Source of the DNA: a virus
Taxonomy: Duplodnaviria; Heunggongvirae; Uroviricota; Caudoviricetes
Virus record (IMG/VR): IMGVR_UViG_2687453530_000006
Coordinates: 1 to 42,965 of that record
Length of the DNA: 42,965 nucleotides
Direction: 5' to 3' (one strand)
A program made the position numbers and the translations under genes. The notes below the pieces were generated by a model. The model was not told the DNA's origin. It was given only the letters and a program-made list of their open reading frames with translations, and made no database searches. Positions 62-36,524 of the stretch are shown in pieces; within the stretch, counting starts at the first letter, position 1, and each line of letters starts with the position of its first letter.

Positions 62-310
62 ATGCGTATTGAAATCTGCATAGCCAAAGAAAAAATGACT
101 AAAATGCCAAACGGTGCTGTGGATGCGTTAAAGGAAGAATTAACCCGACGCATCAGTAAACGTTATGACGATGTAGAGGTGATCGTAAAAGCCACCAGCA
201 ACGATGGGCTTTCTGTTACACGCACCGCAGATAAAGATTCTGCAAAAACATTTGTTCAGGAGACTCTGAAAGATACCTGGGAGTCTGCTGACGAGTGGTT
301 TGTTCACTAA
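62..310 (+). CDS. DinI-family SOS modulator (DNA damage-inducible protein I-like)
   Basis: 82-aa ORF whose length and C-terminal [11 protein letters not shown] motif match the DinI family as recalled; convergent with tfa; followed by a hairpin and T-run. Confidence 0.75.
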
Positions 311-378
311 TAAACACGTAAAATCGGTAACGGCTGGAAATCATTCAATACTCGCACTATCGAAAGTTCACCAGCCAA

Positions 379-420
379 CCGCAGCACGTCCTGCATACGT
401 CGTGTCTGCGGTTTTTCTTT
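379..420 (+). terminator. Rho-independent terminator downstream of the dinI-like gene
   Basis: Inverted repeat ccgcagcacg ... cgtg(t)ctgcgg followed by tttttcttttt on the plus strand. Confidence 0.5.
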
Positions 421-425
421 TTCGC

Positions 426-1010
426 TTACATTGTGTCTGGTTCTTCCGGCCACTCAATATCAGGTGCAGTTGATGTATCAACACGGTTCAGCAACACCCG
501 ATACTTCTTCCAGGCTTCCAGCAATGAGGTTTCTTCCTCCGTTGCGATCTCCAGATCCACAGCATCCTGAAGCGGCGCAATATGCTCACTGGCTACCTGC
601 ATCAGGCTGTTTTTTGTTTCTTCCGCCTCACGGATCCGGAACAGTTTTTCTGCTTCCGTATCCTTCACCCAGGCTGTGCCGTTCCACTTCTGAAACTCCC
701 CTTCCGGCGATAACCAGGTAACATTTTCCGGTAACGGACCGAGTTCAGAAATAAATAACTCGTCCCCTGACGCTACGTCATAAACCGTTTTACCCCGATG
801 GTCTTCAACGAGATGCCACGATGCCTCATCACTGTTGAAAACAGCCACAAAGCCAGCAGGAATATCTGGCGGTGCAATATCGGTACTGTTTGCTGGCAGA
901 CCTGTATGAGGCGGAATATATGCGTCACCTTCACCAATAAATTCATTAGTTCCGGCCAGCAGATTATAAATTTTTATGGTCCGTGGTTGTTCACTCATTC
1001 TGAATGCCAT
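426..1010 (-). CDS. tfa: Tail fiber assembly protein
   Basis: 194-aa ORF immediately downstream of stf; sequence and size typical of lambdoid Tfa proteins as recalled. Confidence 0.85.
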
Positions 1011-4000
1011 TATGCAAGCCTCACAATATAGTTAAATGCGATGTTTTTGACGGTGTTTTCCGCATTACCAGCAGCGTTAACGGTGATGGTGTGTCCATGT
1101 GAACCAATCGCAACGGAGTGCGTATGAGCACCAATACCGACAGTATGCGCGTGTGCACCTGCAGATGCTGCTGTGCCGGACAGTGAGTGGCTATGATTAC
1201 CATCTGTACTGGTATTAGCTAACCACCCCGTAGACATACCTACTGAGCCTTGTACACCCCAGGTATTTTGACCTGAGCTTGTATAACCATATTGATAAGT
1301 ATCTTTAAAAACACTGGGGTTAAATCGACGGCCATCTCTATGGCTGTGATTACCAGCTGCATTCGTGCTGCCACTTAAACTATGAGTATGCGCACCAGTG
1401 TTATTCGTGGATTTAGTGCCGTAATCAAACGATGATGTGGTTTTCGTACCCAAATCCGTACTGGATACGCTGGCGCTGTGGGTGTGCGATTTAATGCCGT
1501 CCTGTTCCTGAGACAATACGGCACGACCACTGGCGGGCTTGCCCTTAATCGTCCAGCCACGCATATCAGGGATCACGCCTGACGGATAAGCGGCTGCAAG
1601 TTTCGGGTAAGCAGATTTGTCAAAAGTCTGCCCCTGCATCAGGGCATAACCAGACGGAACGGTATCTGATGGCCACGGGATTGGTGCGCCGACTGGGTAG
1701 CTTTCTGGTGGAAGATTTTTCGAGGTATAAACTTCTGCCCAGTCTTCCTCAAAACCATAACCGTCTCTTGAAGAACGGTAGAACAGACCACCATTTCTGT
1801 AATGCGCCTTCATCTGCAGGGTCCGGCAACTTCCGACTCCGGTATAGAAGTTAACCAGAATATAGCTGTCGCCAGAGCGGGTGACATTGTAAGCGCCTGA
1901 TTCGGCATTCCAGGGAACGCCACCATCCGCATCGGCATATGTATCCGTTGCCCTTCTGGCAAAAGCAGCCACATGCGCGGCGGTTAAAGTAATATCTTTT
2001 GAACCATCAAACTCAACCCCAGAAACCAGTCTTGGCGTTTGCAGCTTTGTTGCTGTCAATGCGTTACCGTTCAGACTTGCAGACAGCTTGGTTCCAATAA
2101 CCAGTTCGCCGGTTGCGTTATCAATAGCAAACGGTCTTAATGTATTCCATCCACCATAAACATCACCTTGATTGGTAAGCAGCAGGTAAGTTTTAGCGCC
2201 ATCATTACGCCATAATGCCCCATACTCCCCACCTATCATTCGAATCTGATTACCACCACGCGCTACAATTTCGTCTGTGGCAAAAAGTTTTTTGCACGAC
2301 AAGTTATCGTTAACGATTAACGAATGAGACTCATAAAAACCACGCCCACTCTTAAAATCAAGGATAACGTCCGCCGCGATACATTCAGTCGCTGGATTTG
2401 TTGCCCCAAACTTATAGGTCGTATCATTAACAACGAGATCAGCACCAGGTGCGGATATTGACAGGCCATCTTCGATAAACGCAAAAACAGGGAAAGCAGC
2501 GCCATCAACATAGAACACAGAGCGCAAATCATCGCCCTTATTACTCATCATTATTGAGTGGATGGCTCGTTCATTGTTTTGATATTGCCAGAACATTCCA
2601 TAAGCATAACGCCCCCTGTCAGTCCAGCCACCAGGCATAACAAATCCGTTAAACTCGCAGTTATTCATCGGATCGCCTGCGGTTCGCGTTGCCGTGGTGA
2701 TAATGACCCTTGATGCCAGTTCGCTTACTGAGCCAGCAGAACGCATAACAACAACAGGGTAATATTTTCCAGATGTTGCACCTGCAGGAGCGTTAACCCG
2801 CACATAACGCATACCACGCTTATCAGCAAAGTCTGTTTTACTGACCGCGTTAATGTTGTTCAGGAAGCGTCCCTTATCGGGTATATCAGCGCCGTTCTGG
2901 TCTTTCTGCAGACGTTTCTCTGCATTGTCATAGGCTGATTTTACTGCCTTTGGCGTTGCCGCCAGCGTTTCAGACGTGCTGTTGGTCGCGCTGCTTAGCT
3001 GGATTATCCCTTTCTGTGCTGTCGTTGCATCCTGTGCGGTGTATTTCCCGTTAGCCAGGTCATACGCGGCCTTAACGGCTTTTGGCGTTGCCGCCAGTGA
3101 CTCGGAAGTGCTATTGGTCGCACTGCTGAGCTGTACTATCCCCTTTTTCGTCGTGCTCGCATCCTCAAGCGCCACGGCGGATGCAATATCCTCTGCCCGT
3201 TTTGCCGCTGTCTCAGCGCGCGTTGCCGCGGATTCCGCCGTACTTTTGCTCTGAGCTGCCGCCGTCGCACTGCCAGCTGCCTCTGTCGCCTTCGTGGATG
3301 CCGTCGTGGCGCTGCCCTTCGCTGCGGACGCTTGTCTGGTCGCCTCATCTTTTGAAGCAGACGCAGATGATGCCGATGACGCCGCCGAACTGGCGGACGA
3401 TGCGGCAGCCGTTTTTGAGGATTCTGCGCTGGTTTCCGACGCTTTCGCGTTCGTCTCGGATGTCTTCGCTGCGGAAGCAGACCTCGCTGCTGCGCTGGCC
3501 TGTACAGCGGCTTCGCCAGCCTTCGTTGTGGCTGTTGAAGCGGACGATGCAGCACTTTCTGCCGATTTTCCGGCGGCGGTGGCACTGGCTGAGGCCTGCC
3601 CGGCACTTGTTGACGCGGCACTGGCAGACGACGCAGCCGCTGTTTTTGAGCCTGCCGCAGCTGAGGCACTCTGTCCCGCTGCCGTTTCAGAAGACCTGGC
3701 GTTTGTCTCAGACGTCTTTGCCGCCTTCGCGGAATTGCCTGCCGCCGTTGCCGAGGAAGCGGCACTACTGGCGCTTGATGATGCGTTCGTTTCTGATGAT
3801 TTCGCTGCCTCTTTTGAGGCCGCCGCATCCCGGGCTGAGGTGGCTGCTTCTGACGCCTTCGTGGTCGCGGCGGATGCAGAAGTGGCTGCTGATTGTTGTG
3901 ACGCTGCCGCATTCGTTTCTGACGTTTTCGCCGCAGCGGCACTGGTAGCTGCCGCGCTTTTTGAGGACTCTGCAGCAGCAGCACTTTTCGATGCTTCACT

Positions 4001-11073: not shown

Positions 11074-13631
11074 CGTCCACCTCCGGAGAACAGGCCACCA
11101 TCACGCATCTGTGTCTGAATTTCATCACGGGCACCCTTGCGGGCCATGTCATACACCGCCTTCAGAGCAGCCGGACCTATCTGCCCGTTCGTGCCGTCGT
11201 TGTTAATCACCACATGGTTATTCTGCTCAAACGTCCCGGACGCCTGCGACCGGCTGTCAGCCAGACTGCCCGGTGTACCGACATAACCACCGGTGGCATA
11301 GCCGCGCATCAGCCGGTAGAGATTCCCCACGCCAATCCGGCTGGTTGCCTCCTTCGTGAAGACAAATTCACCACGGTGAACAATCCCTGCTGGCTCATAT
11401 TTGCCGCCGGTTCCCGTAAATCCCCCGGTTGCAAAATGGAATTTCGCCGCAGCGGCCTGAATGGCTGTACCACCTGACGCGGATGCGCCGCCACCAACAG
11501 CCCCGCCAATGGCGCTGCCGATACTCCCGACAATCCCCACCATTGCCTGCTTAAGCAGAATTTCTGTCATCATGGACAGCACGGAGCGGGTGAAGCTGCG
11601 CCAGTTCTGTTCACTGCCGGTCAGCATCGCCGCCATATTCTGTGCAATACCATCAAAGGTCTGCGTGGCTGCACTTTTAACCTGTGACATACTGTCCGTG
11701 GCGCTCTCTTCCCACTCACTCCAGCCGGACTTCAGGCCTGCCATCCAGCTCCCGCGAAGCTGGTCTTCAGCCGCCCAGGTCTTTTTCTGCTCTGACATGA
11801 CGTTATTCAGCGCCAGAGGATTATCGCCATACTGTTCCTTCAGGCGCTGTTCCGTGGCTTCCCGCGCTGCCTGCCGGTCAGTCAGCCCCCGGTTTTTCGC
11901 ATCAATGGCTGCCCGTTTTGCCCGTTGCTGCTGTGCGAATTTATCCGCCTGCTGCGCCAGCGCATTCAGGTGCTCCTGATACGTAACCTTGTCACCAAGT
12001 GCAGCCAGCTGGCGTTTGTACTCCAGCGTCTCGTCTTTATGCGCCAGCAGGGATTTCTCCTGTGCGGACAGCTGGCGACGTTGTGCCGCCTCCTCCAGTA
12101 CCGCGAACTGACTTTCTGCCTTCCACAAATCCCGGCGCTGCTGGCTGATTTTCTCATTCGCTCCGGCATGCTTCTCCAGCGTCCGGAGTTCTGCCTGAAG
12201 CGTCAGCAGGGCCGCATGAGCACTGTCTTCCTGACGATCGCCCGCAGACACCTTCACGCCGGACTGTTTCGGCTTTTTCAGCGTCGCTTCATAATCCTTT
12301 TTCGCCGCCGCCATCAGCGTGTTGTAATCTGCCTGCAGGATTTTCCCGTCCTTCAGTGCCTTGTTCAGTTCTTCCTGACGGGCGGTATATTTCTCCAGCG
12401 GCGTCTGCAGCCGTTCGTAAGCCTTCTGCGCCTCTTCGGTATATTTCAGCCGTGACGCTTCGGTATCGCTCTGCTGCTGCGCATTTTTGTCCTGTTGACG
12501 CTGTTGATCTACCCTCTTTTGGGCTGCATCCCGCTCCAAGCGTTTTTTTTCACGATCATCCCAGTAACGCGCCCGTGCTTCATCGTTAACGAAATAATCA
12601 TCCTTGCGCAGATTCCAGATGTCGTCTGCTTTCTTAAACGCAGCCTCTGCCTTAATCAGCATCTCCTGCGCGGTATCAGGACGACCAATATCCAGCACCG
12701 CATCCCACATGGATTTGAATGCACGTGCAGTCCTGTCTGCCCAGGTCTCCAGCGTGCCCATGTTCTCTTTCAGGCGGCGGGTCTGGTCATCAAACCCTTT
12801 CGTTGCGGCCTCGTTCGCCGCCTGCAATGCCCCGGCTTCATCGCCGGAACGCTGCAACTGAGCAACATACGCAATCTGCTCCGCCGTCACGTTATGGAAC
12901 TGGCGTGCCATCGCCGTCAGCCCCGACGTCGGGTCTGTGGTCAGCTTCCCGAAGGCTTCAGCGACCTTGTCCACCTCCACGCCGGATGCAGAGGAGAAAC
13001 GCGCCACACTCTGGCTGATGGACGCAATCTGAGCCTCACCGCTTACCCCCGCCTTAACCAGTGCGCTGAGTGACTCGCTGGTCTGGTTAAACGTCAGCCC
13101 TGCCGCCTGCCCGGCTCTGGACAGGACCAGCATACGATCTGCCGTCAGTCCCGCCTGATTGCCGGAAAGGACCAGCGTTTTGTTGAAATCGGACAGGGTT
13201 GAGTTGCCCTGATACCAGGCATACGCCAGCGCACCGGTCGCCACCGCCAGCGAGGTGGCCCCCACCATCGGCAGGGTGATCGCGCCGGCAAGCCCCCTGA
13301 ACATGGGGATCATCCCGCCGAAGGAGTCCTTAACCTGACCACCCTGTTGCAGCAGGATCAGCCAGGGATTCTGCCCCCCTGCAAGCTGCGTGGCCACGTC
13401 GGTGAACTGTGCAGGCAGCATACGCATGGCGGCTTTATACTGCCCGACGGAAATCCCCGCTTTCTGTGCAGCCAGTGCCTGTCGGCTCAGCGACTGTTCA
13501 ACGACTGCCGCTGTTTTTTTCGCATCACTTTCCGTACCGGAAAAATGACGCCTGACTCTGGCCATCTGCTCGTCAAATCTGGCCGCATCCAGACTTAAAT
13601 CAACGACCAGATCGCCTACCGGTTCAGCCAT
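11070..13631 (-). CDS. H: Tail tape measure protein H
   Basis: 853-aa ORF, same length as lambda H as recalled; extended coiled-coil-like region and Gly-rich C-terminus. Confidence 0.9.
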   Translation of the reverse strand: MAEPVGDLVVDLSLDAARFDEQMARVRRHFSGTESDAKKTAAVVEQSLSRQALAAQKAGISVGQYKAAMRMLPAQFTDVATQLAGGQNPWLILLQQGGQVKDSFGGMIPMFRGLAGAITLPMVGATSLAVATGALAYAWYQGNSTLSDFNKTLVLSGNQAGLTADRMLVLSRAGQAAGLTFNQTSESLSALVKAGVSGEAQIASISQSVARFSSASGVEVDKVAEAFGKLTTDPTSGLTAMARQFHNVTAEQIAYVAQLQRSGDEAGALQAANEAATKGFDDQTRRLKENMGTLETWADRTARAFKSMWDAVLDIGRPDTAQEMLIKAEAAFKKADDIWNLRKDDYFVNDEARARYWDDREKKRLERDAAQKRVDQQRQQDKNAQQQSDTEASRLKYTEEAQKAYERLQTPLEKYTARQEELNKALKDGKILQADYNTLMAAAKKDYEATLKKPKQSGVKVSAGDRQEDSAHAALLTLQAELRTLEKHAGANEKISQQRRDLWKAESQFAVLEEAAQRRQLSAQEKSLLAHKDETLEYKRQLAALGDKVTYQEHLNALAQQADKFAQQQRAKRAAIDAKNRGLTDRQAAREATEQRLKEQYGDNPLALNNVMSEQKKTWAAEDQLRGSWMAGLKSGWSEWEESATDSMSQVKSAATQTFDGIAQNMAAMLTGSEQNWRSFTRSVLSMMTEILLKQAMVGIVGSIGSAIGGAVGGGASASGGTAIQAAAAKFHFATGGFTGTGGKYEPAGIVHRGEFVFTKEATSRIGVGNLYRLMRGYATGGYVGTPGSLADSRSQASGTFEQNNHVVINNDGTNGQIGPAALKAVYDMARKGARDEIQTQMRDGGLFSGGGR

Positions 13632-24654: not shown

Positions 24655-25065
24655 ATGGCTCAGGTTGCCATTTTTAAACAAATATTCGATAAAGTGCGAA
24701 ATAATTTAAACTATCACTGGTTTTATTCTGAACTAAAACGTCACAATGTCTCACATTACATTTACTATTTAGCCACAGAGAATATTCATCTTGTTCTTGA
24801 AAACGATAATACGGTTTTAATAAAAGGACAGGGTAAGGTTGTAAATGTAAGATTTTCAAAAAATAAATGCCTTATAGAAGCCACCTTAAAAGGATTCAAA
24901 TCAGGAGAGTTATCATTTTACGAATACAGGAAAAATCTTGCTACAGCAGGGGTTTTCAGATGGATTACAAATATCCACGAAAACAAAAGGTATTACTATA
25001 CCTTTGATAATTCATTACTCTTTACTGAGAACATTCAGAACACTACACAAATATTTCCGCACTAA
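24655..25065 (+). CDS. DUF1398-family protein (lambda right-end ORF homolog)
   Basis: Start placed at [14 protein letters not shown], preceded by GGAAGG; resembles the lambda ORF adjacent to cos as recalled; the ORF extends upstream to 24640. Confidence 0.7.
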
Positions 25066-25133
25066 ATCATAACGTCCGGTTTCTTCCGTGCCAGAACCGG
25101 ACTCGCTGGCATGATGAAATATGTGTACCCTGC

Positions 25134-25631
25134 TCATTGTTGCCCCCACAAACAGACCTCACGCTCAATCTCACGACGAGTCATCAGGCCTTTCCATTGC
25201 TTACCGCCAGCGTATGCCCAGCGACGTAGCTGGTCACATGCGCCCTTGATATCGCCCTGGTTTATTTTGCGAAGAAGAGTAGATGTTCTGAAATTGCCAG
25301 CACCCACGTTGTAGACGAACGAGTAAAGAGCGCCGCGCGTTGTTTCCGGTATATCGACTTTGATGTACGGGTTAATTTGTCTGGCGACAGTGGCAAGGTC
25401 TTTATTCAAGAGTGCTTTGCATTCTGCTTTGGTATACGTTTTACCGAGCATGATGTCTTTTCCTGTATGCCCGTGACATACAGTCCATACACCAACAATA
25501 TCTTTATATGGTATGTAGCTGACACCTTCCAGACCATCGTTACCACTTGGGCCAGTGATTAACACAGATGCTATAGCAATAGCCCCGCCACCAATAGCAG
25601 CAGCAACAGCTTTTCGTAATGATGGAGGCAT
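25134..25631 (-). CDS. R: SAR endolysin (T4-type lysozyme, GH24) of the phage 21 R type
   Basis: 165-aa ORF; N-terminal weakly hydrophobic Gly/Ala-rich SAR segment ([20 protein letters not shown]) followed by a lysozyme domain; start overlaps the holin stop (TAATG). Confidence 0.85.
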
Positions 25632-25846
25632 TATCCACCTCTCGCAGCCTTGCGCTTATCTTCTTTAATCTTGAAATAAAGGTTTGTCAGGTACGTCAGC
25701 AGGCCAAAGACCAGGCTACCCAGCACACCTATTGCTGCCCACTGTGAGGGCGTGACTTTATCGAGCAGCTGTAAAAACCAGTAACCGGCACTACCTGCTG
25801 AGGTGCCATAGGCGACACCCGTTGTTAACTTATCCATGGATTTCAT
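25631..25846 (-). CDS. S: Pinholin (phage 21 S-type) with dual-start motif
   Basis: Start placed at MKSMDKL (71 aa) with a second Met three codons later; two transmembrane segments; the ORF extends upstream to 25912. Confidence 0.8.
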
Positions 25847-25913: not shown

Positions 25914-26966
25914 TTATTTCCCCACCAGCTCGTTTATCTCTTTCACTGTCTGGTTAAACCGCTCTGACTCAAGCTCAACACCTAAGGCCCGACGCCCCAG
26001 CGCCATTGCTGCTTTTATTGTGGAACCGGATCCCATAAAAAAATCAGCAACCAGATCACCAGGTCGACTACTGGCATTGATTATTTGCCTGAGCATATCC
26101 GCCGGTTTCTCACACGGATGTTTACCCGGGTAGAACTGAACGGGTTTATGCATCCAGACATCGGTATAAGGCACGGAGACTGATACGGAGAAATAGCGCC
26201 GGAGAGATTTAAACTCATCCAGCAATTCAGAATATTTGCGATTCAGTGAATCATAAGATGCCACCAGCTGGTGGTGTGGTTGTTCCAGTTGTTGTTCCTG
26301 AAACTTCTCTGCCGCTATACGGGAAAACAGTGCCTGTAACTTCCGATAGTCAGCCTCATTCGGCAACTGCCACTGACTGGCACCAAACCAGTGGGAAACC
26401 ATATTTTTCTTACCTGTGGCTTCAGCAATTTGTTTTGCCGTTATACCCAGTTCGGCACGAGCATCCCTGAAATACGATATCAGCGGTGCCATTATGTGCT
26501 GTTTGAGTTCCCTTTCTTTTGCCGCATAGCCGTCACTTTTGCCGCGATATGGCCCCTGGTAATGTTCAGCAAACAGAACGCGCTCTGTGGCAGGAAAATA
26601 TGCGCGCAGACTTTCTTTATTACACCCATTCCAACGTCCGGACGGCTTCGCCCAGATGATATGGTTAAGCACGTTGAAACGTTCACGCATCATGATCTCA
26701 ATATCAGATGCCAGGCGATGCCCACAGAACAGGTAAAGGCTTCCGGCAGGTTTTAACACCCGCCAGAACTGGGCCAGACAGTGGTCCAGCCACTTAAGGT
26801 AATCTTCGTCCCCTTTCCACTGATTGTCCCAGCCGTTGGGTTTCACCTTGAAGTACGGCGGATCGGTAACAATCAGGTCAATGGAATCATCAGGCAGGGA
26901 CTGAATAAAATGCAGGCAATCAGCGTTGATTAAATCAACACTGTTTATTTTTACAGTATTTTTCAT
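25914..26966 (-). CDS. DNA methyltransferase (beta-class N6-adenine or N4-cytosine; DPPY motif)
   Basis: 350-aa ORF with [10 protein letters not shown] (motif IV) near the N-terminus and FFMGSGST (motif I, SAM binding) near the C-terminus. Confidence 0.8.
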
Positions 26967-27588: not shown

Positions 27589-28530
27589 ATGAGTACAGAA
27601 AATAAGAATAAAACTAGGCGAGTGAGAGTTGGTTTTTTCACTGGTAATGGAAGCAAAAAAGATGGCACATCTGCTGCAAAACTAGCCTTTGAGCAAATGA
27701 CCACAGCAGATACTGTAACTTTTCCAATAACTTACACAACAGACACCCCAAATCGAGGGTTAAAGTTAGTTATTCTTCAAAAAGATACCACACTGCAATG
27801 TTACTTTGGTTACGTATCGTGGAGAAGGGAATGCCTACTACCGTTCATCGAGGATGCTACAGGTAGTGAGAGAACAATTCCTTTAAATGATAAAGATTCT
27901 GTAGTTGAAAGAACATATTTTATCTATTACTACGAAACGGATTTATTAGCTATGACCCTCAACCATATAGGGCCCAAAGTAAATGATCTGGCATTCATTT
28001 TGTATAACAAAACTGATTTAAAAAGCGTGACTTTTGAAGCCATTTGGAAACAAGAGAGCATGAAGGAACTGCTTGAGGACGGAAATATCCTACGTAGTTT
28101 CGATCTTATAGTTGCTGCTCCAAGAAACTTTAACAAAGCTAATTATAAGATTAAAAACCCTTTAGCTAATGAAATTATTGACATGGTTGTTGGTATGGGC
28201 GGGTCGCATCTAAGATTAAATATGCGAGGTCGGATTCGCCCGAAAAAACAAGGTTTTAACTATCTAAAAACTTCTGTCACCGATGCTATTAAGGAACTAC
28301 TTGAACTTTTTCCAAAAGGTTCTGGAGGTCTAAAAATTAAAAAAATTGATGTAACCGAGCCATCCAATAGAACGCCCAAAAGTCTACTTGACCAAGTATT
28401 GGTCAGTACAAAGACAATCATTGTCAAAAGCGGTTATCCATCCGATTCTGATATCAGAACGGCGATGATATCTGCTAAAATTGATAACGCGAACTATCTT
28501 GCACAGTATGAGCTCGCTAGCAGAGACTAA
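27589..28530 (+). CDS. Hypothetical soluble protein, candidate RexA-like sensor of a two-gene module
   Basis: 313-aa ORF in an AT-rich block, opposite in orientation to surrounding late genes; basic N-terminus; the stretch HIGPKVNDLAFILYNK resembles a lambda RexA segment as recalled (unverified). Confidence 0.45.
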   Translation: MSTENKNKTRRVRVGFFTGNGSKKDGTSAAKLAFEQMTTADTVTFPITYTTDTPNRGLKLVILQKDTTLQCYFGYVSWRRECLLPFIEDATGSERTIPLNDKDSVVERTYFIYYYETDLLAMTLNHIGPKVNDLAFILYNKTDLKSVTFEAIWKQESMKELLEDGNILRSFDLIVAAPRNFNKANYKIKNPLANEIIDMVVGMGGSHLRLNMRGRIRPKKQGFNYLKTSVTDAIKELLELFPKGSGGLKIKKIDVTEPSNRTPKSLLDQVLVSTKTIIVKSGYPSDSDIRTAMISAKIDNANYLAQYELASRD

Positions 28531-28539
28531 TAACCAAGC

Positions 28540-29001
28540 ATGGAGGACACAATGAGAGAATTAGCCACTTTTCTCTGGAAATGCGTCCTCTGGATTCTGT
28601 TGACCTATGCAGCGACAAAACTGTTTAAACCGATGAAGCATGCTGACGTACTCACAACAGCGGGGGTGCTCTCGACTATATCAGGCATCCTGTTTGGTTT
28701 TGTTCTGGCTGCAATATCTATATTTAGTAGTGCAAACAGCGATAAGGAAGGAGCAATTAATGCCCTTAAGCAAAACAACGTGTTACCAACTCTGGTAAAT
28801 CGATTACTTTCAACAGGGTTAACTCTCATCGTCGCATGTATATTTCCATTGATAGCGATGTTTCTACCAGATGATGTTATTGTTGCGGGCAAACCTATTG
28901 ATTTCCTATTCATACTGTTAGGCTTATCCTCCCTTATAATTTCGCTATATACCTTCGGAAGGTGTTGGTTAGTGTTACGAAAAATCTTCCCCCACTTGTG
29001 A
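28540..29001 (+). CDS. Small four-helix membrane protein, candidate RexB-like effector
   Basis: 153-aa ORF 10 bp downstream of the 313-aa gene; four hydrophobic segments of about 20 residues; alternative start at 28552 after GGAGGA. Confidence 0.45.
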   Translation: MEDTMRELATFLWKCVLWILLTYAATKLFKPMKHADVLTTAGVLSTISGILFGFVLAAISIFSSANSDKEGAINALKQNNVLPTLVNRLLSTGLTLIVACIFPLIAMFLPDDVIVAGKPIDFLFILLGLSSLIISLYTFGRCWLVLRKIFPHL

Positions 29002-29036: not shown

Positions 29037-29405
29037 CTAAGCGTCCATTTCAAGGTTAACATCCAACATTGAAAGGCAACCATCAATAAATCCTTCGGCT
29101 AGTTGTATTTCTATGCGTACCAATTTTTCATCCTTTCCACGCACCTTTGCAATCTTACGCTTGGATATTCTGTATAAATAATGTGCCACAAGCAGCGAGT
29201 GCTCATCTGGCTTTTTTTGCTTTAGACGAGCAAGACAACCTTCAATAATTAATGCATCACTATCTGAACAAGCCTGACGTGTTTTGCTTGTGTAGGGAAG
29301 AAGCCCCTTAAACCCAGCAGCTATAGGCGAATAGTCTACTCCAGAACTATCACTCGCCGCCCATGCTCCCCAACGCTCCAGAACCATCTGAATATCACGC
29401 ATCAA
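29037..29405 (-). CDS. Q: Late-gene antiterminator Q (QuuD/Q82-like family)
   Basis: 122-aa ORF starting MMRDIQMVLERWGAWAA, resembling E. coli prophage QuuD-type antiterminators as recalled. Confidence 0.75.
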   Translation of the reverse strand: MMRDIQMVLERWGAWAASDSSGVDYSPIAAGFKGLLPYTSKTRQACSDSDALIIEGCLARLKQKKPDEHSLLVAHYLYRISKRKIAKVRGKDEKLVRIEIQLAEGFIDGCLSMLDVNLEMDA

Positions 29406-29419
29406 CTTTCTCCACCAAA

Positions 29420-30415
29420 TCAGGCCAACACACCAATCGCCAGCGCGCGATCGATAAAACGAAATATCAGCTCCAGTTGGGAGCCATACTTCTCTTCAAA
29501 TGCCACGGTATCCGCATGCAGCTCGTCGTGATGCTTTCTGCACAAAGGCAACACAAAGAGGTCATGCACTTTTGTATCCATTCCACCCTGACCGTGACCT
29601 ATCAGGTGGTGGGGATCATCAGCAGGCTTTCCACAACATGCACACGGCTGTGTCTTAACCCAGCGCGTGTACTTTTCATTAACCCAGCGGCGGCGTTTTG
29701 GGCGTAACATAAAAGACTCCGGCGACTCCGGATCCACTTTCAGCGCCAGCACCTTTTTCGCCTTATCCTGGATGATGCTGGTGGCAGGAACCGAAGGCAC
29801 AAGGTCACTTTCCCGGGTGACAGACGGCACAACAGGCTTCGGTAATCTCAGTGCCTTACGGGCTGCACTTTCCGGTAAGGCATCTGCCAGATCATTACGA
29901 ATCAGCCACCAGCACAGTTCCGGCATTGTCACAACGTGACTATCATCAAAACCGAGATCCCGACGCACAACAGACAACACCCAGCGGGCACAGTTATCCG
30001 TTGCCATTGATTCCAGCCGTTCCGTGAACTGATCGCGAAGCTGGTTATCGCAGTGCCAGCACAGACGGATTGCGCCCGGCGCGTGTCGCATTGTGGTCAT
30101 GTTCTCGCTGTGCCAGTCGGAATGAGGCCACTGGCAGCCTTTTTCACGAAGTAACCAGCTTTCAAGACATTCCACCCCACCAGCACGACGAATCACTGCC
30201 TCATTACGGAACACGGCCAGAACGGCAGGATCATCCGCCAGCGGTTGTGATGCCGCAGGAACGGCACCACTGGCGAAAGATGAATAACGCTCCGGCTCAG
30301 GCTCCAGCAGAACACGCCCCTGCATAAACAGGGGCATCAGCTCTGAACCTGGCCTGAACAATACGATCCCCATACGCGGGGCTATTTCAGGGGTCAGTAG
30401 TGCTCTCACGGTCAC
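29420..30415 (-). CDS. DUF968-family protein (YdfU-like) with C-terminal Cys/His HNH-like motif
   Basis: 331-aa ORF; C-terminal CACCGKPADDPHHLIGHG...CRKHHDELH; adjacent to Q as ydfU is to quuQ in the Qin prophage as recalled. Confidence 0.6.
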   Translation of the reverse strand: MTVRALLTPEIAPRMGIVLFRPGSELMPLFMQGRVLLEPEPERYSSFASGAVPAASQPLADDPAVLAVFRNEAVIRRAGGVECLESWLLREKGCQWPHSDWHSENMTTMRHAPGAIRLCWHCDNQLRDQFTERLESMATDNCARWVLSVVRRDLGFDDSHVVTMPELCWWLIRNDLADALPESAARKALRLPKPVVPSVTRESDLVPSVPATSIIQDKAKKVLALKVDPESPESFMLRPKRRRWVNEKYTRWVKTQPCACCGKPADDPHHLIGHGQGGMDTKVHDLFVLPLCRKHHDELHADTVAFEEKYGSQLELIFRFIDRALAIGVLA

Positions 30416-30416
30416 C

Positions 30417-31214
30417 TCAATGAACGGTATCGAGCAGCTTTAACAGCTCAGGGAATCGGGATTCGAAGAAATGCGGCTGCGTCTCGCGCGGATTTGCGGG
30501 ACTGGTGATGTTCTTGCCGAACATGCAGCCTTTCGCCGTCAGCGACCAGAATTTTTTAATGTTGTTAATTGCGGTACGGCTGTATCGTTCGCGTTGTTCA
30601 ACGATCCCCAGCTTCACCATCTGGTGATATGCCTGATTAGCCGTAAGGCGGATACCATACTGTTTCAGCAGTGCACTCAGCGACAGCGTGGGGCGACTTG
30701 AGCCATCAGGCGCGTCAGCAGGAGCATCAATGGCATAGCGCGGTGCCAGATTCGGTAAGCCAACAGCCTCCTGAAGCTTCTGACAGGCTCCAAGCACTGA
30801 TGAGTTAGACAGGTTTAATTCCCTGCGCATAAAGTCCAGCAGGATCACGCCAGCCTGCATCTTGTCAGCAGCCTGCCCGGATATTTTTTCCGGTGTGCTG
30901 GTTACCATATCGAAAGTACGGATCACCTTCAGATGGAATGACGGGCTGATCCACATTGCATAGGCATACACCAGTTCTTTGCAGACATACGTCCCCTGGT
31001 TATTTCCGCCACGAATAACGTTAACTGGCTCTATATTGACCGAGTTGCAAATCTGCAACTCGCTTATTAAACGTTCAGTTTGCTCATTGCGGAGCCAGAA
31101 TGCAGGCTTATGCTTATCCAGAGAACCGGCAGCCCTGTGCAGATCGTTCAGGCTGTAACGCCCATAAGCATCACGACGAACTTCAATACCATCAATGACC
31201 ATCAGATTATTCAT
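30417..31214 (-). CDS. KilA-N domain protein (Roi/antirepressor-like)
   Basis: 265-aa ORF; N-terminal MNNLMVIDGIEVRRDAYGRYSLNDLHRAAG...FWLRNEQT pattern typical of KilA-N/Bro-N DNA-binding domains. Confidence 0.65.
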   Translation of the reverse strand: MNNLMVIDGIEVRRDAYGRYSLNDLHRAAGSLDKHKPAFWLRNEQTERLISELQICNSVNIEPVNVIRGGNNQGTYVCKELVYAYAMWISPSFHLKVIRTFDMVTSTPEKISGQAADKMQAGVILLDFMRRELNLSNSSVLGACQKLQEAVGLPNLAPRYAIDAPADAPDGSSRPTLSLSALLKQYGIRLTANQAYHQMVKLGIVEQRERYSRTAINNIKKFWSLTAKGCMFGKNITSPANPRETQPHFFESRFPELLKLLDTVH

Positions 31215-31233
31215 ACTTCGTTTCTCCTCTTAA

Positions 31234-31623
31234 TCAGGCGGCTGCACCCGCCGTTTTCTCGTACTTACTGATAGTGATCTCGACCTTCCCTCCCGGGATA
31301 ACCGGTCCCCACTCCACCAGCATTCTTTTCACCTGACTGTCGTCTTCCCACACACCCGCGTGGGTCAGGGCGTCAAACAGCGCCTTGTTATAGTTGTCCA
31401 GATCGCGGATCCGGTTATCCGGAGGAAACAACACGATCTCCACTGAAGCAGGTGCCGACGTTGGTTTCGGCAGACGACGTAACTGCTCAACTATTGCTGC
31501 GCACGCCGCGCTCTGGAATTTTCGCCCCGCCGCGCTTATCAGACTCTTACCAGCAAACGCCCCTTTGTTGGGGTGTCGCCAGTACGTGTTCACGCTGGGC
31601 GGGAAAGGCAAGATCAGCTTCAT
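31234..31623 (-). CDS. rusA: Holliday junction resolvase RusA
   Basis: 129-aa ORF with PPSVNTYWRH and RDLDNYNKALFDALTHAGVWEDDSQV motifs characteristic of RusA. Confidence 0.85.
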   Translation of the reverse strand: MKLILPFPPSVNTYWRHPNKGAFAGKSLISAAGRKFQSAACAAIVEQLRRLPKPTSAPASVEIVLFPPDNRIRDLDNYNKALFDALTHAGVWEDDSQVKRMLVEWGPVIPGGKVEITISKYEKTAGAAA

Positions 31624-31946
31624 ACTTTCAGGCCTCTCTCATGTAACCAGTGGGCTGCACGCAGCCTGGCGTTTTCCTCACCGGCAAGCAGTGCGCGGAT
31701 AATCCCGACCGCCTCGCTGTCGTCGTCCTTCACCGCGGTATGAAGCGTTATCCCCCGGGCCACGCCACGCTTTATCGTGATGACGCCTTTTTTCTCCAGT
31801 GCACGAAGATGCTCTACCGCTGCATTCACTGAACGGTATCCCAGCATGGTTGCCACCTCCTGATTGGTTGGCGGGAAGCCACGTTCTTTCTGATAAGAAA
31901 TCAGCATATCCAGCACCTGCTGCTGGCATTGAGTTAACGTCGTCAT
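31620..31946 (-). CDS. LexA N-terminal DNA-binding-domain-only protein
   Basis: 108-aa ORF; LTQCQQQVLDMLISYQKERGFPPTNQEVATMLGYRSVNAAVEHLRALEKKGVI closely parallels the LexA winged-HTH domain as recalled; no S24 peptidase domain. Confidence 0.75.
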   Translation of the reverse strand: MTTLTQCQQQVLDMLISYQKERGFPPTNQEVATMLGYRSVNAAVEHLRALEKKGVITIKRGVARGITLHTAVKDDDSEAVGIIRALLAGEENARLRAAHWLHERGLKV

Positions 31947-32596
31947 GCCGCCATCTCCCTGACCAGTTTTTCTGCCTGCTGGCGAACCTGCGCCAGAAAG
32001 GCCTCACCACATGCCTCAAGTTCATCGCGCCCGATGTAGCTGATTGCCGGTCCCTTCCAGGTCTTGTCGAAAACAGCAATAGCACCAGCGAAGAACGCAC
32101 CTGTCGGCACCTGCTTCTCATCCTTCGGGATAAACCAGGCAGGCAGTTCAAAACCAATACGCCCGCGAATAAAAGCAATATGATCTGCATCTTCCGGCCA
32201 CCACACTTCGCTGGTGGCAGCTTTGATCAGGAAAACATAGCGCCCGCCTTTATCACGCATGGCACTGGCATGCTTCATGATGTAACGCATGCCGGTGATG
32301 TATTGCCCCTCATGCTGACTGGCGCGGCTGTATGGGGGATTACCAAAGGCAGCACCTTTAAGCTCCGCAAGACGTTCTGACCAGTCATGCGCCAGCGCGT
32401 TGTCTTCCGCCGTGTAATACGCGGCACATTTGGCGTTATCACCGTCAGTGAACAGATCCAGAACAAACGGACCAAACAGGGTGTTAATTCCCCAGAAAAT
32501 GTTATCCGGCGTGCGCCACTGATCGCCCACTTCCTTCAGTTCATGGGCTGGTTTATTCCGCAGTTCCACCAGCGCCTGGCAATATTTATTACTCAT
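31943..32596 (-). CDS. Phage Dam-type N6-adenine DNA methyltransferase (NPPY motif)
   Basis: ORF 31943-32629; FGNPPYS motif; start placed at MSNKYCQ, where the ATG overlaps the upstream stop (TAATG); alternative start at 32629. Confidence 0.75.
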   Translation of the reverse strand: MSNKYCQALVELRNKPAHELKEVGDQWRTPDNIFWGINTLFGPFVLDLFTDGDNAKCAAYYTAEDNALAHDWSERLAELKGAAFGNPPYSRASQHEGQYITGMRYIMKHASAMRDKGGRYVFLIKAATSEVWWPEDADHIAFIRGRIGFELPAWFIPKDEKQVPTGAFFAGAIAVFDKTWKGPAISYIGRDELEACGEAFLAQVRQQAEKLVREMAA

Positions 32597-33090
32597 TAAG
32601 CCCCCACGTAATTCCCTGACAGATACCACTCTTCACCCGATGCAGCGCGCTTGCTGCTTTTCCGTAAACACTGCTCACGACGCGCCAGAAAATTGTTTCG
32701 TTCTGGCTGGGAGTGGCTTTCACGGAATGCCGCCATCCACACCGTTGCAGCACGACGGTATAAGCCCCTGGACTCCAGTTCTTCCGCCTGGCGGGTCAGG
32801 CACAAAATCACCCGCGGGTCGTTAGTGCCGACATAGAAATTGCGCACAGGTCTGGTTTCACGAACTGGTTGTGGTTCCGGCTCCTGCGCTCTCTCAGTCA
32901 GGCGTGGGAAATGTCTGCGTGTATCTCCTTCACAACGGTGAGCCACACGCCCACTCTGACGTAACTTGCTTGCTGACTGCAGAACGCGCTGCCGTGAGTA
33001 ACCTGCAAAAGCATCCGCAATGTCTCCGGAAGTACACCCCGGATGGGCTTCAATGAATTTCTGAACTTCATTCAAAAGACTCATGATCAC
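32596..33090 (-). CDS. Hypothetical protein (possibly PerC-like regulator)
   Basis: 164-aa ORF translationally coupled between the replication gene and Dam; contains a YRRAATVWM motif; family assignment uncertain. Confidence 0.4.
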   Translation of the reverse strand: MIMSLLNEVQKFIEAHPGCTSGDIADAFAGYSRQRVLQSASKLRQSGRVAHRCEGDTRRHFPRLTERAQEPEPQPVRETRPVRNFYVGTNDPRVILCLTRQAEELESRGLYRRAATVWMAAFRESHSQPERNNFLARREQCLRKSSKRAASGEEWYLSGNYVGA

Positions 33091-33905
33091 CCCCTGAATC
33101 CTGCCGGGATCTGGCTGTAGTCCACGTTGTCGTAACTGGCTTTGAAGTACGGGTCCTCGCGTCTGGCTGCAGATACCGCAGGAACTTCCCAGGATTCTTC
33201 GAAATGACGATCCGGACCAAAGAACGTGACAGCCTGTTTCACAAATTGTGTGCCGCTGTTACCCATCGCAGATACCCAGCCCGCGTAGCGTTTCACACCT
33301 TCCAGCATGGTTTCGGGGTTTACCCCCTCATTCAAACGGGCTTTCCAGGCTTTGAAGGCTGCAGATTTTGAATTGCCACCAGCACGTTTGGGATATGCCA
33401 GCCATGCCTGCTCAAACTCCGGAGAGTATTCCGGTCGGTTTGAACGAACTCGCACGGACTCATCAACTGATGCACCAACAGCTATTGGTTCATTGACTGG
33501 TTCTTTGACTGGTTCAAAAGAGTGACTGGTTCTGGGTGAATCTCCTGCACTACCCCCTGGTGCAACTCCTGCACTACCTGGTGAATTTGCTGCACCAGAT
33601 AGTGAATTATTTGCACTACCCCCTAGTGAATCTCCTGCACCATCCAGATGAAGGAGATAGATATTACTTGAGTTACCTTTTTCACCTTTCCGGGTGACTT
33701 TTTTTACCAGCCCGGACTCACAAAGGGCCGCAATATGATTCATCACAGAACGTTTGCTAATCTCGCACTGGTCAGCAATATGCTGGTAGCTGGGCCAGCA
33801 CTCACCCTGATCGCTGGCATTATCAGCCAGCTTGATCAGAACCAGTTTTCGCAATGGATTACCCACTCGAATTTTCATCGCTTTAACCATCAGCTCCATA
33901 CTCAT
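33087..33905 (-). CDS. Replication initiator (O-like; N-terminal winged HTH) containing the putative origin
   Basis: 272-aa ORF; N-terminal HTH (LVLIKLADNASDQGECWPSYQHIADQCEISKRSVMNHIAAL); Gly/Ser/Ala linker encoded by direct DNA repeats; first large gene after the cII-like block. Confidence 0.7.
   Translation of the reverse strand: MSMELMVKAMKIRVGNPLRKLVLIKLADNASDQGECWPSYQHIADQCEISKRSVMNHIAALCESGLVKKVTRKGEKGNSSNIYLLHLDGAGDSLGGSANNSLSGAANSPGSAGVAPGGSAGDSPRTSHSFEPVKEPVNEPIAVGASVDESVRVRSNRPEYSPEFEQAWLAYPKRAGGNSKSAAFKAWKARLNEGVNPETMLEGVKRYAGWVSAMGNSGTQFVKQAVTFFGPDRHFEESWEVPAVSAARREDPYFKASYDNVDYSQIPAGFRG
33490..33650. repeat. Iteron array (putative origin) inside the replication initiator gene
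   Basis: Three copies of TGACTGGTTC (33493-33532) followed by about five 22-24-bp direct repeats of the form CTGCAC(T/C)ACC...GGTGAA (33536-33650). Confidence 0.65.
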
Positions 33906-34138
33906 GCTGCACCTCCGAGATGCTTCATGTTTTTTCCGGAGCGAAAGGCTATAAGCGGCATACTGACGCGGTAATTACGGCCCAGCGGTTCACAAATCAC
34001 CTTCTGGCATTCACGGTCAACCAGGCTAACACGTAGAACATGCCCTGCAGGTGTGGTGTACCACTGCCCAACTGTAGGAATTGATGTTTTTTTACGCTGA
34101 AATAAACGGTAAATGTTGAGGATCAACGGATTAAGCAT
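33902..34138 (-). CDS. Hypothetical protein
   Basis: 78-aa ORF with start and stop overlapping neighbouring genes (operon-like coupling). Confidence 0.4.
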   Translation of the reverse strand: MLNPLILNIYRLFQRKKTSIPTVGQWYTTPAGHVLRVSLVDRECQKVICEPLGRNYRVSMPLIAFRSGKNMKHLGGAA

Positions 34139-34967
34139 GACGATGCCCTCCGCTGATATTCAGGAGACGGTGAATATGAAAATTAGCCTTATCCGCCAGA
34201 CGAATACGTTCAGCCTGCAAGTTAAGAAGGGTTTCTACCAAAACCTGATGCGCCTGCGGATCCGAAAGAGTTACCTTGCGCAGAGCACGTAGTGCAGTTG
34301 TTACATAACTGAGTTTATGTAAGTCTTCATCATTCAGACGAGTGAGGGCTGGGACAGTAGCCATGATGGCAGCCTCCGATAACAGTGAATTACCTTCACC
34401 ACCGGAAACGCCAATTTCGCTGGTGGTGAACTGAACGGGGTTGGCGTAACCGGCGTTATCGGAAACCGGCGCACCTTTCGGTGCCCCCGTCCAGCCCACC
34501 ATAATTTGGGTGTGCACAGACGCAGACGATAAAAAAGACGCTGGCGCGTCATATATCGCCGATAACATTTCCAGGACGCCAATCCCGGCACCCGCTTTAT
34601 AAGGTGCCTGAACAGTGTAACGTCCCGGAATGGCAGAATCAATGTGCTGGTGGTCCTTCACACTCAACAAAATCACGCCTGAATTTCCACAAAGGACTAA
34701 AGCACTCATGCGGGTAGTCTTTGCGAAGATAGATAACGCGCTGTGTTTCTGGCTCCCAACGAATAACATGAACATAAAGTCCTCTTCCGTCACGAAACCA
34801 GCGGTTAAGTTCCTGCACAACTCGCCCCCCACAGTCAGGTAAAGTTCTCTGTGGTTACTTACAGCCAGGTGATTTGGTAATCTGCATTCATGCCGTAACA
34901 ACAGGTGTTCAGCGACGCTGACCACCAGCTGTTGCGACAAACGGTTATTTGCCGTTAAACTGTTCAT
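34131..34967 (-). CDS. Hypothetical protein (early right operon)
   Basis: 278-aa ORF between the cII-like gene and the replication gene; no recognisable motif. Confidence 0.45.
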   Translation of the reverse strand: MNSLTANNRLSQQLVVSVAEHLLLRHECRLPNHLAVSNHRELYLTVGGELCRNLTAGFVTEEDFMFMLFVGSQKHSALSIFAKTTRMSALVLCGNSGVILLSVKDHQHIDSAIPGRYTVQAPYKAGAGIGVLEMLSAIYDAPASFLSSASVHTQIMVGWTGAPKGAPVSDNAGYANPVQFTTSEIGVSGGEGNSLLSEAAIMATVPALTRLNDEDLHKLSYVTTALRALRKVTLSDPQAHQVLVETLLNLQAERIRLADKANFHIHRLLNISGGHRHA

Positions 34968-35527
34968 GCGTTAGTTTCTCCACAGACACAAAACGCCACG
35001 ACGCCCGGAGCTGCACACTCGCGGGCGTCACTCTTTTCTGGAGCGCAAAAGATTTTGTAGACCAGTGCTGCATGCTCCTGGAGCTTCGAAATTGACAGAT
35101 ACAACTCATCATTAATTGCTGTCTGCTCGTGTGGCTCCACTACCCCATCTTCGATTGCCGAACGAATCTGCTTTGAGTAACTCCCGATCTGTTCGATGAC
35201 TTCCAGCAGGCGCTGGTTTATATCGGCGTTCTCTACTTCCTCAATTTCAGGAAGCGATACAAACACCCCACCAGCAGACTGTGCGACAGCATCCGCAATG
35301 TAGTGAGTGCCAGCCGCGCGCTGTAAAACCATTGCCCATCCCAGCGGGAAAATCTGATCGCCATCTGCACGAAGGCGGTTGAATAAAGCGTTCTCTGTTA
35401 CATCCAGCCACTCAGCAGCTTCAGCGTAACCCCCCGGCAACGCCGCGATAGTTTTCCTGACAGCTTTCACGTACCACTCAGGCTGTTTTTCTACTTTCCA
35501 GTGATGCTTACCCACGGTTAGCCTCAT
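34964..35527 (-). CDS. CII-like regulatory protein (Phage_CP76-like)
   Basis: 187-aa ORF immediately downstream of the cro-like gene; family recalled by size and position only. Confidence 0.5.
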   Translation of the reverse strand: MRLTVGKHHWKVEKQPEWYVKAVRKTIAALPGGYAEAAEWLDVTENALFNRLRADGDQIFPLGWAMVLQRAAGTHYIADAVAQSAGGVFVSLPEIEEVENADINQRLLEVIEQIGSYSKQIRSAIEDGVVEPHEQTAINDELYLSISKLQEHAALVYKIFCAPEKSDARECAAPGVVAFCVCGETNA

Positions 35528-35849: not shown

Positions 35850-36524
35850 ATGAAAACAGTCCATGACATCCGGCGGTCTAACGCCAGAAAACTGAGAGAT
35901 GGTGTTGGCGGGAATTCTTCCTTTGCCACCATGATTGATCGCGAGCCAACCCAGACCAGCAGGTTTATGGGAGATGGTGCTACTAAAAATATCGGTGACA
36001 GCATGGCACGGCACATCGAAAAATGTTTCGACCTGCCTGTCGGATGGCTTGATCAAGAACACCAGACAACAAACATCACAAAAAAACCTGATGTTTCAAT
36101 TACTAACAAACAAATAACGTTAGTCCCTGTCATATCATGGGTACAGGCCGGAGCATGGAAAGAAGTTGGCTATTCTGAGGTTGATTTGAGCACAGCAGAA
36201 ACTTATCCCTGCCCTGTACCCTGTGGCGAAATGACTTATATCTTGCGGGTGATTGGTGATTCAATGATTGATGAGTACCGCCCGGGAGACATGATTTTTG
36301 TAGATCCTGAAGTCCCTGCCTGCCACGGTGACGACGTTATTGCATTGATGCACGATACAGGTGAAACCACCTTCAAAAGGTTGATAGAAGATGGGACACA
36401 GCGTTATCTCAAAGCGTTAAACCCAAACTGGCCTGAGCCTTACATTAAGATCAACGGTAATTGCTCTATAATTGGTACAGTGATTTTCTCAGGAAAACCA
36501 AGAAGATACAAAATCAAAGCCTAA
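35850..36524 (+). CDS. cI: CI-type prophage repressor (N-terminal HTH, C-terminal S24 LexA-like peptidase)
   Basis: 224-aa ORF; C-terminal domain has the Ser (VIGDSM) and Lys (TFKRL) catalytic dyad of autocleaving repressors. Confidence 0.85.
   Translation: MKTVHDIRRSNARKLRDGVGGNSSFATMIDREPTQTSRFMGDGATKNIGDSMARHIEKCFDLPVGWLDQEHQTTNITKKPDVSITNKQITLVPVISWVQAGAWKEVGYSEVDLSTAETYPCPVPCGEMTYILRVIGDSMIDEYRPGDMIFVDPEVPACHGDDVIALMHDTGETTFKRLIEDGTQRYLKALNPNWPEPYIKINGNCSIIGTVIFSGKPRRYKIKA

Follow-up and report, generated by a model that had tools for sequence, protein, structure and literature searches.

The window analysed here, a stretch of 42,965 nucleotides (nt) corresponding to positions 1 to 42,965 of the IMG/VR virus record IMGVR_UViG_2687453530_000006 (Caudoviricetes), is a lambdoid prophage. 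Its early operon contains a short gene, hereafter the LexA-like gene, whose product carries the DNA-binding domain of LexA and lacks the domain through which LexA is cleaved, dimerises and docks on activated RecA (RecA*). The gene and its parts are the following.

31620..31946, minus strand: LexA-like gene (LexA DNA-binding domain only), an open reading frame (ORF) of 108 amino acids (aa) with an ATG start
31743..31946, minus strand: winged helix-turn-helix (wHTH), codons 1-68 of the LexA-like gene, from the AlphaFold2 (AF2) model and its Foldseek match to 3JSO; recognition helix SVNAAVEHLRAL
31638..31724, minus strand: two-helix tail, codons 75-103 of the LexA-like gene, from the AF2 helices 75-87 and 93-103

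A LexA DNA-binding domain without a catalytic domain

The ATG of the ORF overlaps the stop codon of dam (ATGA at 31943-31946) and is preceded by a GGAG motif about 8 nt upstream; its stop codon overlaps in turn the ATG of rusA (ATGA at 31620-31623). The encoded protein is a member of two families, since it matches the Pfam profile PF01726 (LexA_DNA_bind) over positions 1-65 of 65 (E 2.9e-19, 69 bits for a cutoff of 23.7) and PHROG 362 (phrog_362) over model positions 1-106 of 106 (E 1.6e-59). BLASTP aligns it with residues 1-86 of Escherichia coli LexA (39/90 identities, 43%, E 1e-21), without gaps over residues 1-70, and the sequence matches found by phmmer in the PDB are LexA chains only (1LEA, 3JSO; E ~1e-15). 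The AF2 model, computed from 16 family members with a mean predicted local distance difference test (pLDDT) score of 82, displays the wHTH topology, with helices at residues 6-22, 28-35 and 40-52 and strands at 56-58 and 66-68 forming the β-hairpin wing (56-68). Residues 1-68 of this model are superimposed by Foldseek on DNA-bound E. coli LexA (3JSO) with a root-mean-square deviation (rmsd) of 1.0 Å and 50% identity over 68 residues.

The chain ends at residue 108 and the Pfam search returned no Peptidase_S24 match in it. A sequence-only reading of this DNA had described 31620-31946 as encoding a 108-aa LexA N-terminal wHTH devoid of an S24 domain, a description borne out by PF01726, BLASTP, the 3JSO overlay and the missing Peptidase_S24 match. 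Against TIGR00498, the lexA equivalog, the protein covers model positions 1-91 of 203 only and reaches 70.5 bits, below the cutoff of 110.95. The protein is not LexA proper: it combines the lack of an S24 domain and a sub-cutoff equivalog score with the lack of a conserved Ala-Gly site and of an autoregulatory box in the window.

According to PMC13416735, which cites Knegtel 1995, residues Ser39, Asn41, Ala42, Glu44 and Glu45 of E. coli LexA contribute to DNA binding, and PMC5999292 describes a base contact by Asn41. Our alignment indicates that the LexA-like protein keeps four of these five residues (S39, N41, A42 and E45, with E44 replaced by V) together with R64-G65-I66 of the wing. Within the family, S39 is invariant, N41 nearly so and E45 present in most members. 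Because most LexA contact residues are retained, we infer that a CTGT-type half-site is the most economical expected target. The determinants of LexA dimerisation and RecA* docking reside in its C-terminal domain (CTD), and the N-terminal domains (NTDs) share an extensive interface on operator DNA (PMC3159453). Since LexA NTDs touch each other on the operator, a protein reduced to this domain could plausibly bind a palindromic box.

Downstream of the wHTH, the linker residues 71-75 are modelled with low confidence and precede the helices 75-87 and 93-103. The tail pattern EAVxxIRALLAxxxxARxRAxxWLxxRG is kept in homologues of 40-50% identity, A97 and L101 being invariant, and residues 69-108 taken alone gave no significant match in Pfam or PDB searches. 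This tail stands in place of the catalytic and dimerisation domain of LexA and, judging from the model, is a candidate oligomerisation or partner-binding element. The BLASTP similarity to LexA extends through the linker, so that A88-G89-E90 of the LexA-like protein aligns with the LexA cleavage site A84-G85-E86. Because the similarity continues in this way into the AGE motif, the alignment suggests that the gene originated from an enterobacterial lexA cut off just past the cleavage site. At the same position the homologues read ANE, VGE, ERE, TRK, DDQ and others, and the Ala-Gly scissile bond is not conserved. A retained cleavage site, acting in trans-cleavage or as a decoy substrate, was considered and rejected, as the AGE motif is unconserved in the family and the segment is modelled as a helix plus turn.

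Selection, distribution and previous annotation

The allele set comprised 82 copies of the gene, namely those of the window, of locus L001 and of 80 IMG/VR loci. These represent 54 nucleotide alleles and only 11 protein variants. The ratio of non-synonymous to synonymous polymorphism (pN/pS) over the 54 alleles amounts to 0.05 for the whole gene, 0.012 for the wHTH and 0.116 for the tail, and homologues measure 104-111 aa across genera. The LexA-like gene is a real gene and not a pseudogene, and it is under strong purifying selection. It occurs in 2232 of 5426 complete E. coli genomes (~41%), in up to four copies per genome, as well as in phages SfV, SfII, SfIV, cdtI, mEp460 and Ayreon and in many Shiga toxin (Stx) phages of the Stx2a and Stx2c types. 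A scan of IMG/VR for relatives returned only copies of 99-100% identity. A scan of genome contigs with diverged members yielded three true relatives, two from Klebsiella and one from Enterobacter, and nearly all of its other matches look like the host lexA of Vibrionaceae and Alteromonadales.

The product is named 'LexA family protein' or 'LexA family transcriptional regulator' in RefSeq, and PHROG 362 bears the label 'transcriptional repressor' in the category transcription regulation. A pangenome of Stx phages contains a pfam01726-only pham present in 15 phages and grouped under 'repressor lexA' without analysis (PMC8136144). The family is already widely annotated and is therefore not new as an object; our full-text literature search found no functional study of it. 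A search among representative proteins also retrieved many short proteins of 69-150 aa reduced to LexA_DNA_bind (P0133, P0148, P0151, P0152 and others), and a set of 140-350 aa carrying two tandem LexA-type wHTH domains. In view of these many short and tandem-domain proteins, those limited to the LexA NTD appear to form a broad, largely unstudied class.

Prophage context and expected expression

The genes surrounding the LexA-like gene, in the order of early transcription and followed by the divergent repressor gene, are listed below.

Early operon, next to the immunity region, minus strand: cro-like gene, placed by gene order
34964..35527, minus strand: cII
34131..34967, minus strand: ash
33087..33905, minus strand: O-like replication gene
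32596..33090, minus strand: perC, homologue of PerC-family (Pch-like) transcriptional activators, between the replication gene and dam
31943..32629, minus strand: dam, phage Dam methyltransferase gene lying 5' of the LexA-like gene (PF05869, E 1.1e-45)
31234..31623, minus strand: rusA, Holliday-junction resolvase gene lying 3' of the LexA-like gene (PF05866, E 7.3e-15)
30417..31214, minus strand: KilA-N gene
29420..30415, minus strand: DUF968/HNH gene
29037..29405, minus strand: antiterminator gene Q, end of the early operon (PF06530, E 7.7e-52)
35850..36524, plus strand: divergent CI-type repressor gene with an S24 self-cleavage domain (PF00717 Peptidase_S24, E 1.5e-26)

The early operon, which is of the pR type, thus reads cro-like, cII, ash, O-like, perC, dam, LexA-like, rusA, KilA-N, DUF968 and Q, and is followed by the lysis and structural genes. 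Because this operon ends with the antiterminator Q, the LexA-like gene is a nin-region, delayed-early gene, and its translation is coupled to that of dam and rusA. The S24-type CI repressor is expected to be the actual SOS sensor of the prophage, with induction proceeding through CI self-cleavage. No promoter-like site was found on the minus strand between the immunity region and the LexA-like gene. Given its position deep in the early operon and the S24-type repressor, the protein is most likely made only after induction.

In homologues of 40-50% identity from Klebsiella, Enterobacter and further loci, the same gene order recurs, with replication or methylase genes, LexA_DNA_bind, RusA, KilA-N or Rha/ANT (sometimes absent), DUF968 and Q. 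The adjacency of the LexA-like gene and rusA is kept in all diverged homologues examined except in Edwardsiella phage EPP-1, where rusA lies upstream and separated.

Several features of this region were recorded besides. The perC equivalent of L001 is frameshifted. A promoter-like site, TTAAGA-16-AATAAT, is present on the minus strand at 31206-31233, within the 20 bp that separate rusA from the KilA-N gene. Two near-identical IMG/VR loci carry a strong SOS box, CACTGTTCATAAATACAGTA, at +764 from the start of the LexA-like gene, at the equivalent position after rusA; since the box follows rusA there, it suggests that the downstream antirepressor-like gene is LexA-controlled in some relatives. 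Between Q and the late genes, two plus-strand ORFs at 27589..28530 (313 aa) and 28540..29001 (153 aa) are antisense to the late transcript. Neither matched anything in Pfam or PADLOC searches, L001 has a single hypothetical gene of 447 nt at their position, and they could be a moron or defence cargo. Membership of the LexA-like protein itself in a defence system was rejected, PADLOC giving only a weak and irrelevant match (CARF3, E 3.6e-4).

SOS boxes in the window

The perfect motif CTGT-N8-ACAG occurs five times in the window for 0.58 ± 0.76 expected from shuffles, and none of the other spacings between 0 and 20 shows enrichment. Three of the five perfect sites score like genuine operators with a position weight matrix (PWM) that is approximate and was built from 20 E. 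coli SOS boxes. These three boxes and the genes that they accompany are the following.

1-20 and 29-48: pair of strong SOS boxes, CACTGTTTATCCATACAGTT and TACTGTATACAAACACAGTA, preceding dinI (PWM 21.2 and 23.6)
62..310, plus strand: DinI-family gene, a moron (PF06183, E 1.2e-19)
26939..26958: strong SOS box TACTGTAAAAATAAACAGTG on the minus strand, covering codons 4-9 of the N6_N4 DNA methylase gene (PWM 23.0)
25914..26966, minus strand: N6_N4 DNA methylase gene, between Q and the lysis genes

The tandem boxes and dinI lie past the tail-fibre genes at the window's edge, as is typical of a LexA-controlled prophage moron. The DinI homologue that the sequence-only reading had placed at 62-310 is upheld by PF06183 and has two strong boxes in front of it; its link to the LexA-like protein is circumstantial. 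The moron dinI, with its SOS boxes, is located at the opposite end of the prophage. The methylase box TACTGTAAAAATAAACAGTG is found with the same gene in L001 and in 15 of the 80 IMG/VR loci, and lies 24 nt 5' of a homologous methylase gene in L093. This suggests that the methylase gene is a LexA-controlled moron, or that its start codon was mis-called. All three strong boxes could serve as operators for host LexA as well as for the phage protein, and none of them lies near the LexA-like gene. The other two perfect sites, at 11564 and 34849, score below 12 inside coding sequence and were taken as chance occurrences.

Boxes were also observed within repressor genes. A near-perfect SOS box is located about 210 nt inside a CI-type repressor gene of L001 (box at 25182-25201, XRE/CI-like gene at 24973..25665) and equally deep in the S24 repressor gene of L005 (box at 836-855, gene at 369..1064). 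Similar boxes occur 2.9-4.5 kb upstream of the LexA-like gene in 18 of the 80 IMG/VR loci, probably at the same cI-internal place. The window's own cI has no internal SOS box of the L001/L005 type.

SOS boxes in sister lineages

Outside the window, the LexA-like gene belongs in several lineages to a transcription unit with a strong SOS box ahead of it, namely in Edwardsiella phage EPP-1 (L004), in L006/L007 and L093, in Klebsiella L095/L096 and in Enterobacter L097. The corresponding regions are as follows.

L006, 5500-6408: region of the SOS box
L093, 5470-6357: region of the SOS box
L095, ~4381: SOS box
L096, ~4380: SOS box
L097, ~4560: SOS box
L004, 2731: SOS box

The box is intergenic, 25-620 bp 5' of the small or medium ORF that precedes the LexA-like gene, and within 7-12 kb there is no other strong box, or just one more. 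It comes directly after a terminator-like hairpin and a -35/-10-like pair in L006 and L093. The order is hairpin, promoter, SOS box, a small ORF of ~75-125 aa, LexA-like gene, RusA, DUF968 and Q. Because the box sequences differ among loci, the box appears to be maintained at this place and not merely inherited. In these lineages, the LexA-like gene together with rusA, DUF968 and Q is predicted to belong to the SOS regulon, and Q would be under direct control of host LexA, independently of CI. The arrangement resembles lexA autoregulation, as would be expected if the product exerted feedback through such an operator.

Comparison with known systems

The closest reference is E. coli LexA itself (PDB 1LEA, 1JHH, 3JSO), with which the phage protein shares the N-terminal wHTH (43% identity over 90 residues, ~50% within the wHTH, 1.0 Å). 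Residues S39, N41, A42 and E45 and R64-G65 of the wing are common to both, which makes a CTGT-type target probable for the phage protein. The two differ in that the phage protein ends with a 30-residue two-helix tail instead of the S24, dimerisation and RecA*-docking domain, in that the Ala-Gly at 88-89 is unconserved in the phage family, and in that the phage gene belongs to an early lytic operon with no SOS box of its own in the window. The fragment 1-84 released by RecA*-stimulated autocleavage of LexA is equivalent in its domains to the phage protein, since it keeps the DNA-binding part and lacks the CTD. Cleavage reduces the DNA affinity of LexA and exposes residues that target the fragment to ClpXP and Lon (PMC3159453). 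Unlike this fragment, the phage protein continues into an extra helical hairpin and terminates in ...ERGLKV, and for this reason it may be stable and a better binder.

The only characterised analogue that we found is gp6 of GIL01, a tectivirus of Bacillus thuringiensis, which is a truncated LexA homologue activating the late promoter P3 (PMC6182141). Both are LexA DNA-binding domains of temperate phages devoid of the cleavage domain, both are encoded among early genes and, in sister lineages, the LexA-like gene seems to share with gp6 a LexA-repressed promoter. BLASTP yields no alignment between them at E ≤100. As there is no detectable pairwise similarity, they are independent captures from different host LexAs. 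Moreover, gp6 counts 66 aa without helical tail, differs from LexA in specificity (K38, palindrome GaCACAC GTGTGaC) and is an activator of transcription, whereas the phage protein studied here has R at position 38 and keeps the LexA contacts, and the window lacks the palindrome of gp6. The LexA-like protein represents, as gp6 does, a lineage of the phage LexA-NTD-only kind, one that is new and independent.

A third comparison is offered by lambda NinH, a mimic of Fis (PMC7166090). It is likewise a small nin-region protein encoded beside a Holliday-junction resolvase gene and copying a global DNA-binding protein of the host. The preferred sequence of NinH resembles that of host Fis; for the LexA-like protein, we infer a corresponding likeness to host LexA. 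The two differ in their domains (Fis HTH versus LexA wHTH), and NinH was studied biochemically.

A proposed uncleavable LexA mimic and its alternatives

The reading that we favour, with a probability of roughly 40%, is that the LexA-like protein is a RecA-insensitive mimic of LexA that would sit, in lytic growth, on SOS operators of the CTGT type. Once the early operon is switched on, by induction of the prophage or by infection of a cell, the mimic would be made as a delayed-early product. It would recognise CTGT-containing operators of the SOS type and bind them as a dimer held by its tail, by NTD-NTD contacts such as LexA makes on DNA, or by both. Because it is not cleavable, it could re-impose a LexA-type repression once host LexA has been destroyed, or in the course of an SOS-triggering infection. 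Its targets would be the host SOS regulon, the SOS-boxed morons of the prophage (dinI and the N6_N4 methylase gene) and, in competing elements, antirepressors or toxins under LexA control, and it would act in lytic growth and not on the induction decision of its own prophage. Speaking for this reading are the LexA fold with most contact residues kept, the missing CTD, the NTD-NTD interface of LexA on DNA, the purifying selection, the place of the gene in a coupled early operon, the three strong boxes of the window and the boxes ahead of the gene's unit in relatives. A stronger proposition concerns the benefit to the phage: the mimic would reset the SOS regulon to its off state after RecA* has destroyed LexA, silencing host SOS functions as well as antirepressors, colicins and toxins of co-resident elements, and would thereby serve both as an SOS shut-off and as a factor of competition between prophages. 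We regard this proposition as rather unlikely.

A number of points weigh against the proposed mimicry. The substitution of V for E at residue 44 in the window protein, and the loss of E45 or A42 in P0086, P0172 and P0191, could reflect a drift of specificity, and the spacing of the half-sites could differ from N8. The window copy has no SOS box of its own, none with a score of at least 12 being found from 31946 to the immunity region. Control by host LexA alone would also explain the boxes of the sister lineages; in L093, a perfect box lies upstream of the gene for P0191, whose recognition helix has diverged, and this combination favours host-LexA control there. The precedent of gp6 and the near-invariant adjacency to rusA also weigh against the mimic, as discussed below. 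Finally, our literature search found no binding study of any member of the family.

The precedent of gp6 leads to a different role, in which the protein would be a private transcription factor, activator or repressor, acting on operators of its own phage and not on host SOS boxes. As a phage protein reduced to the LexA NTD, gp6 recognises a distinct palindrome and activates P3 (PMC6182141), and the co-transcription of the LexA-like gene with Q from an SOS-controlled promoter in relatives parallels the expression of gp6 from the LexA-repressed P1. The transcription regulation label of PHROG 362 agrees with such a role, as does the variation of residue 44, and of 42 and 45 in some homologues, within the recognition helix. 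On the other hand, most LexA recognition residues are kept, no conserved palindrome other than the SOS type was found, and the protein has no detectable similarity to gp6, whose palindrome has a single match with three mismatches in the window against 3.6 expected. Late transcription is, besides, already served by the antiterminator Q. We consider a private regulator possible but unlikely.

The neighbourhood of rusA could point instead to recombination. The protein would then be a DNA-architectural element, or an accessory of recombination or replication in the nin region, working with RusA, the DUF968 HNH nuclease or both, much as lambda NinH, from the same region, imitates the DNA-binding portion of host Fis (PMC7166090). 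The LexA-like gene lies directly 5' of rusA, usually with overlapping stop and start codons, in a unit continued by DUF968 and Q, and this synteny recurs in prophages of E. coli, Klebsiella and Enterobacter, in L005, L006 and L088-L093 and in homologues of 40-50% identity. The lambdoid nin order is, however, conserved for modular reasons, so that synteny is not evidence of interaction, and in EPP-1 the two genes are dissociated. The strict conservation of the base-contact residues (pN/pS 0.012) suggests binding that is sequence-specific and not structural. An accessory role of this sort appears improbable.

The sequence-only reading had proposed that the protein acts in the lysogen, on SOS boxes or through heterodimers with host LexA, and sets with DinI the induction threshold of its own prophage. 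The presence of dinI in the same prophage speaks for this, as does the terminator-plus-SOS-box promoter of L006, L093, L095-L097 and the short Edwardsiella homologue (L004), from which a repressed prophage could express the gene upon DNA damage. In the window, by contrast, the gene is deep in the early operon and translationally coupled, neither a promoter-like site nor an SOS box separates it from the immunity region, and the prophage repressor is an S24-type CI. Heterodimers are made unlikely by the location of the LexA dimerisation and RecA* interfaces in the CTD (PMC3159453), which the LexA-like protein lacks. A role in the lysogen is therefore very improbable. The domain assignment of that reading is retained, and its non-cleavable SOS-operator binder, with four of five contact residues kept, is a reasonable hypothesis; the tuning of induction and the heterodimer are poorly supported. 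Lastly, a decaying, functionless remnant of a captured lexA, to which the similarity running through the linker into the AGE motif at 88-90 could point, is effectively refuted by the pN/pS of 0.05 over 54 alleles, by the constant length of 104-111 aa across genera and a tail conserved at 40-50% identity, and by the presence of the gene in 41% of complete E. coli genomes.

Biological implications

The LexA-like gene is of interest for its abundance in E. coli, Shigella and Stx phages. Should the protein act on an operator of its own phage, it would be the second case, independently evolved, of a phage converting a captured LexA head into a private regulator. If the proposed SOS shut-off by a LexA mimic is real, the sister lineages, whose gene lies together with Q behind an SOS box of its own, would possess a circuit giving self-limiting pulses. 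Binding to SOS operators would provide a natural and stable LexA-NTD repressor, potentially useful as a tool. It would also mean that a very common prophage gene rewires the DNA-damage response of E. coli, Shigella and Shiga toxin-producing E. coli (STEC) at the time of induction, with possible effects on mutagenesis, on the cross-induction of Shiga-toxin phages and on the competition between co-resident prophages.

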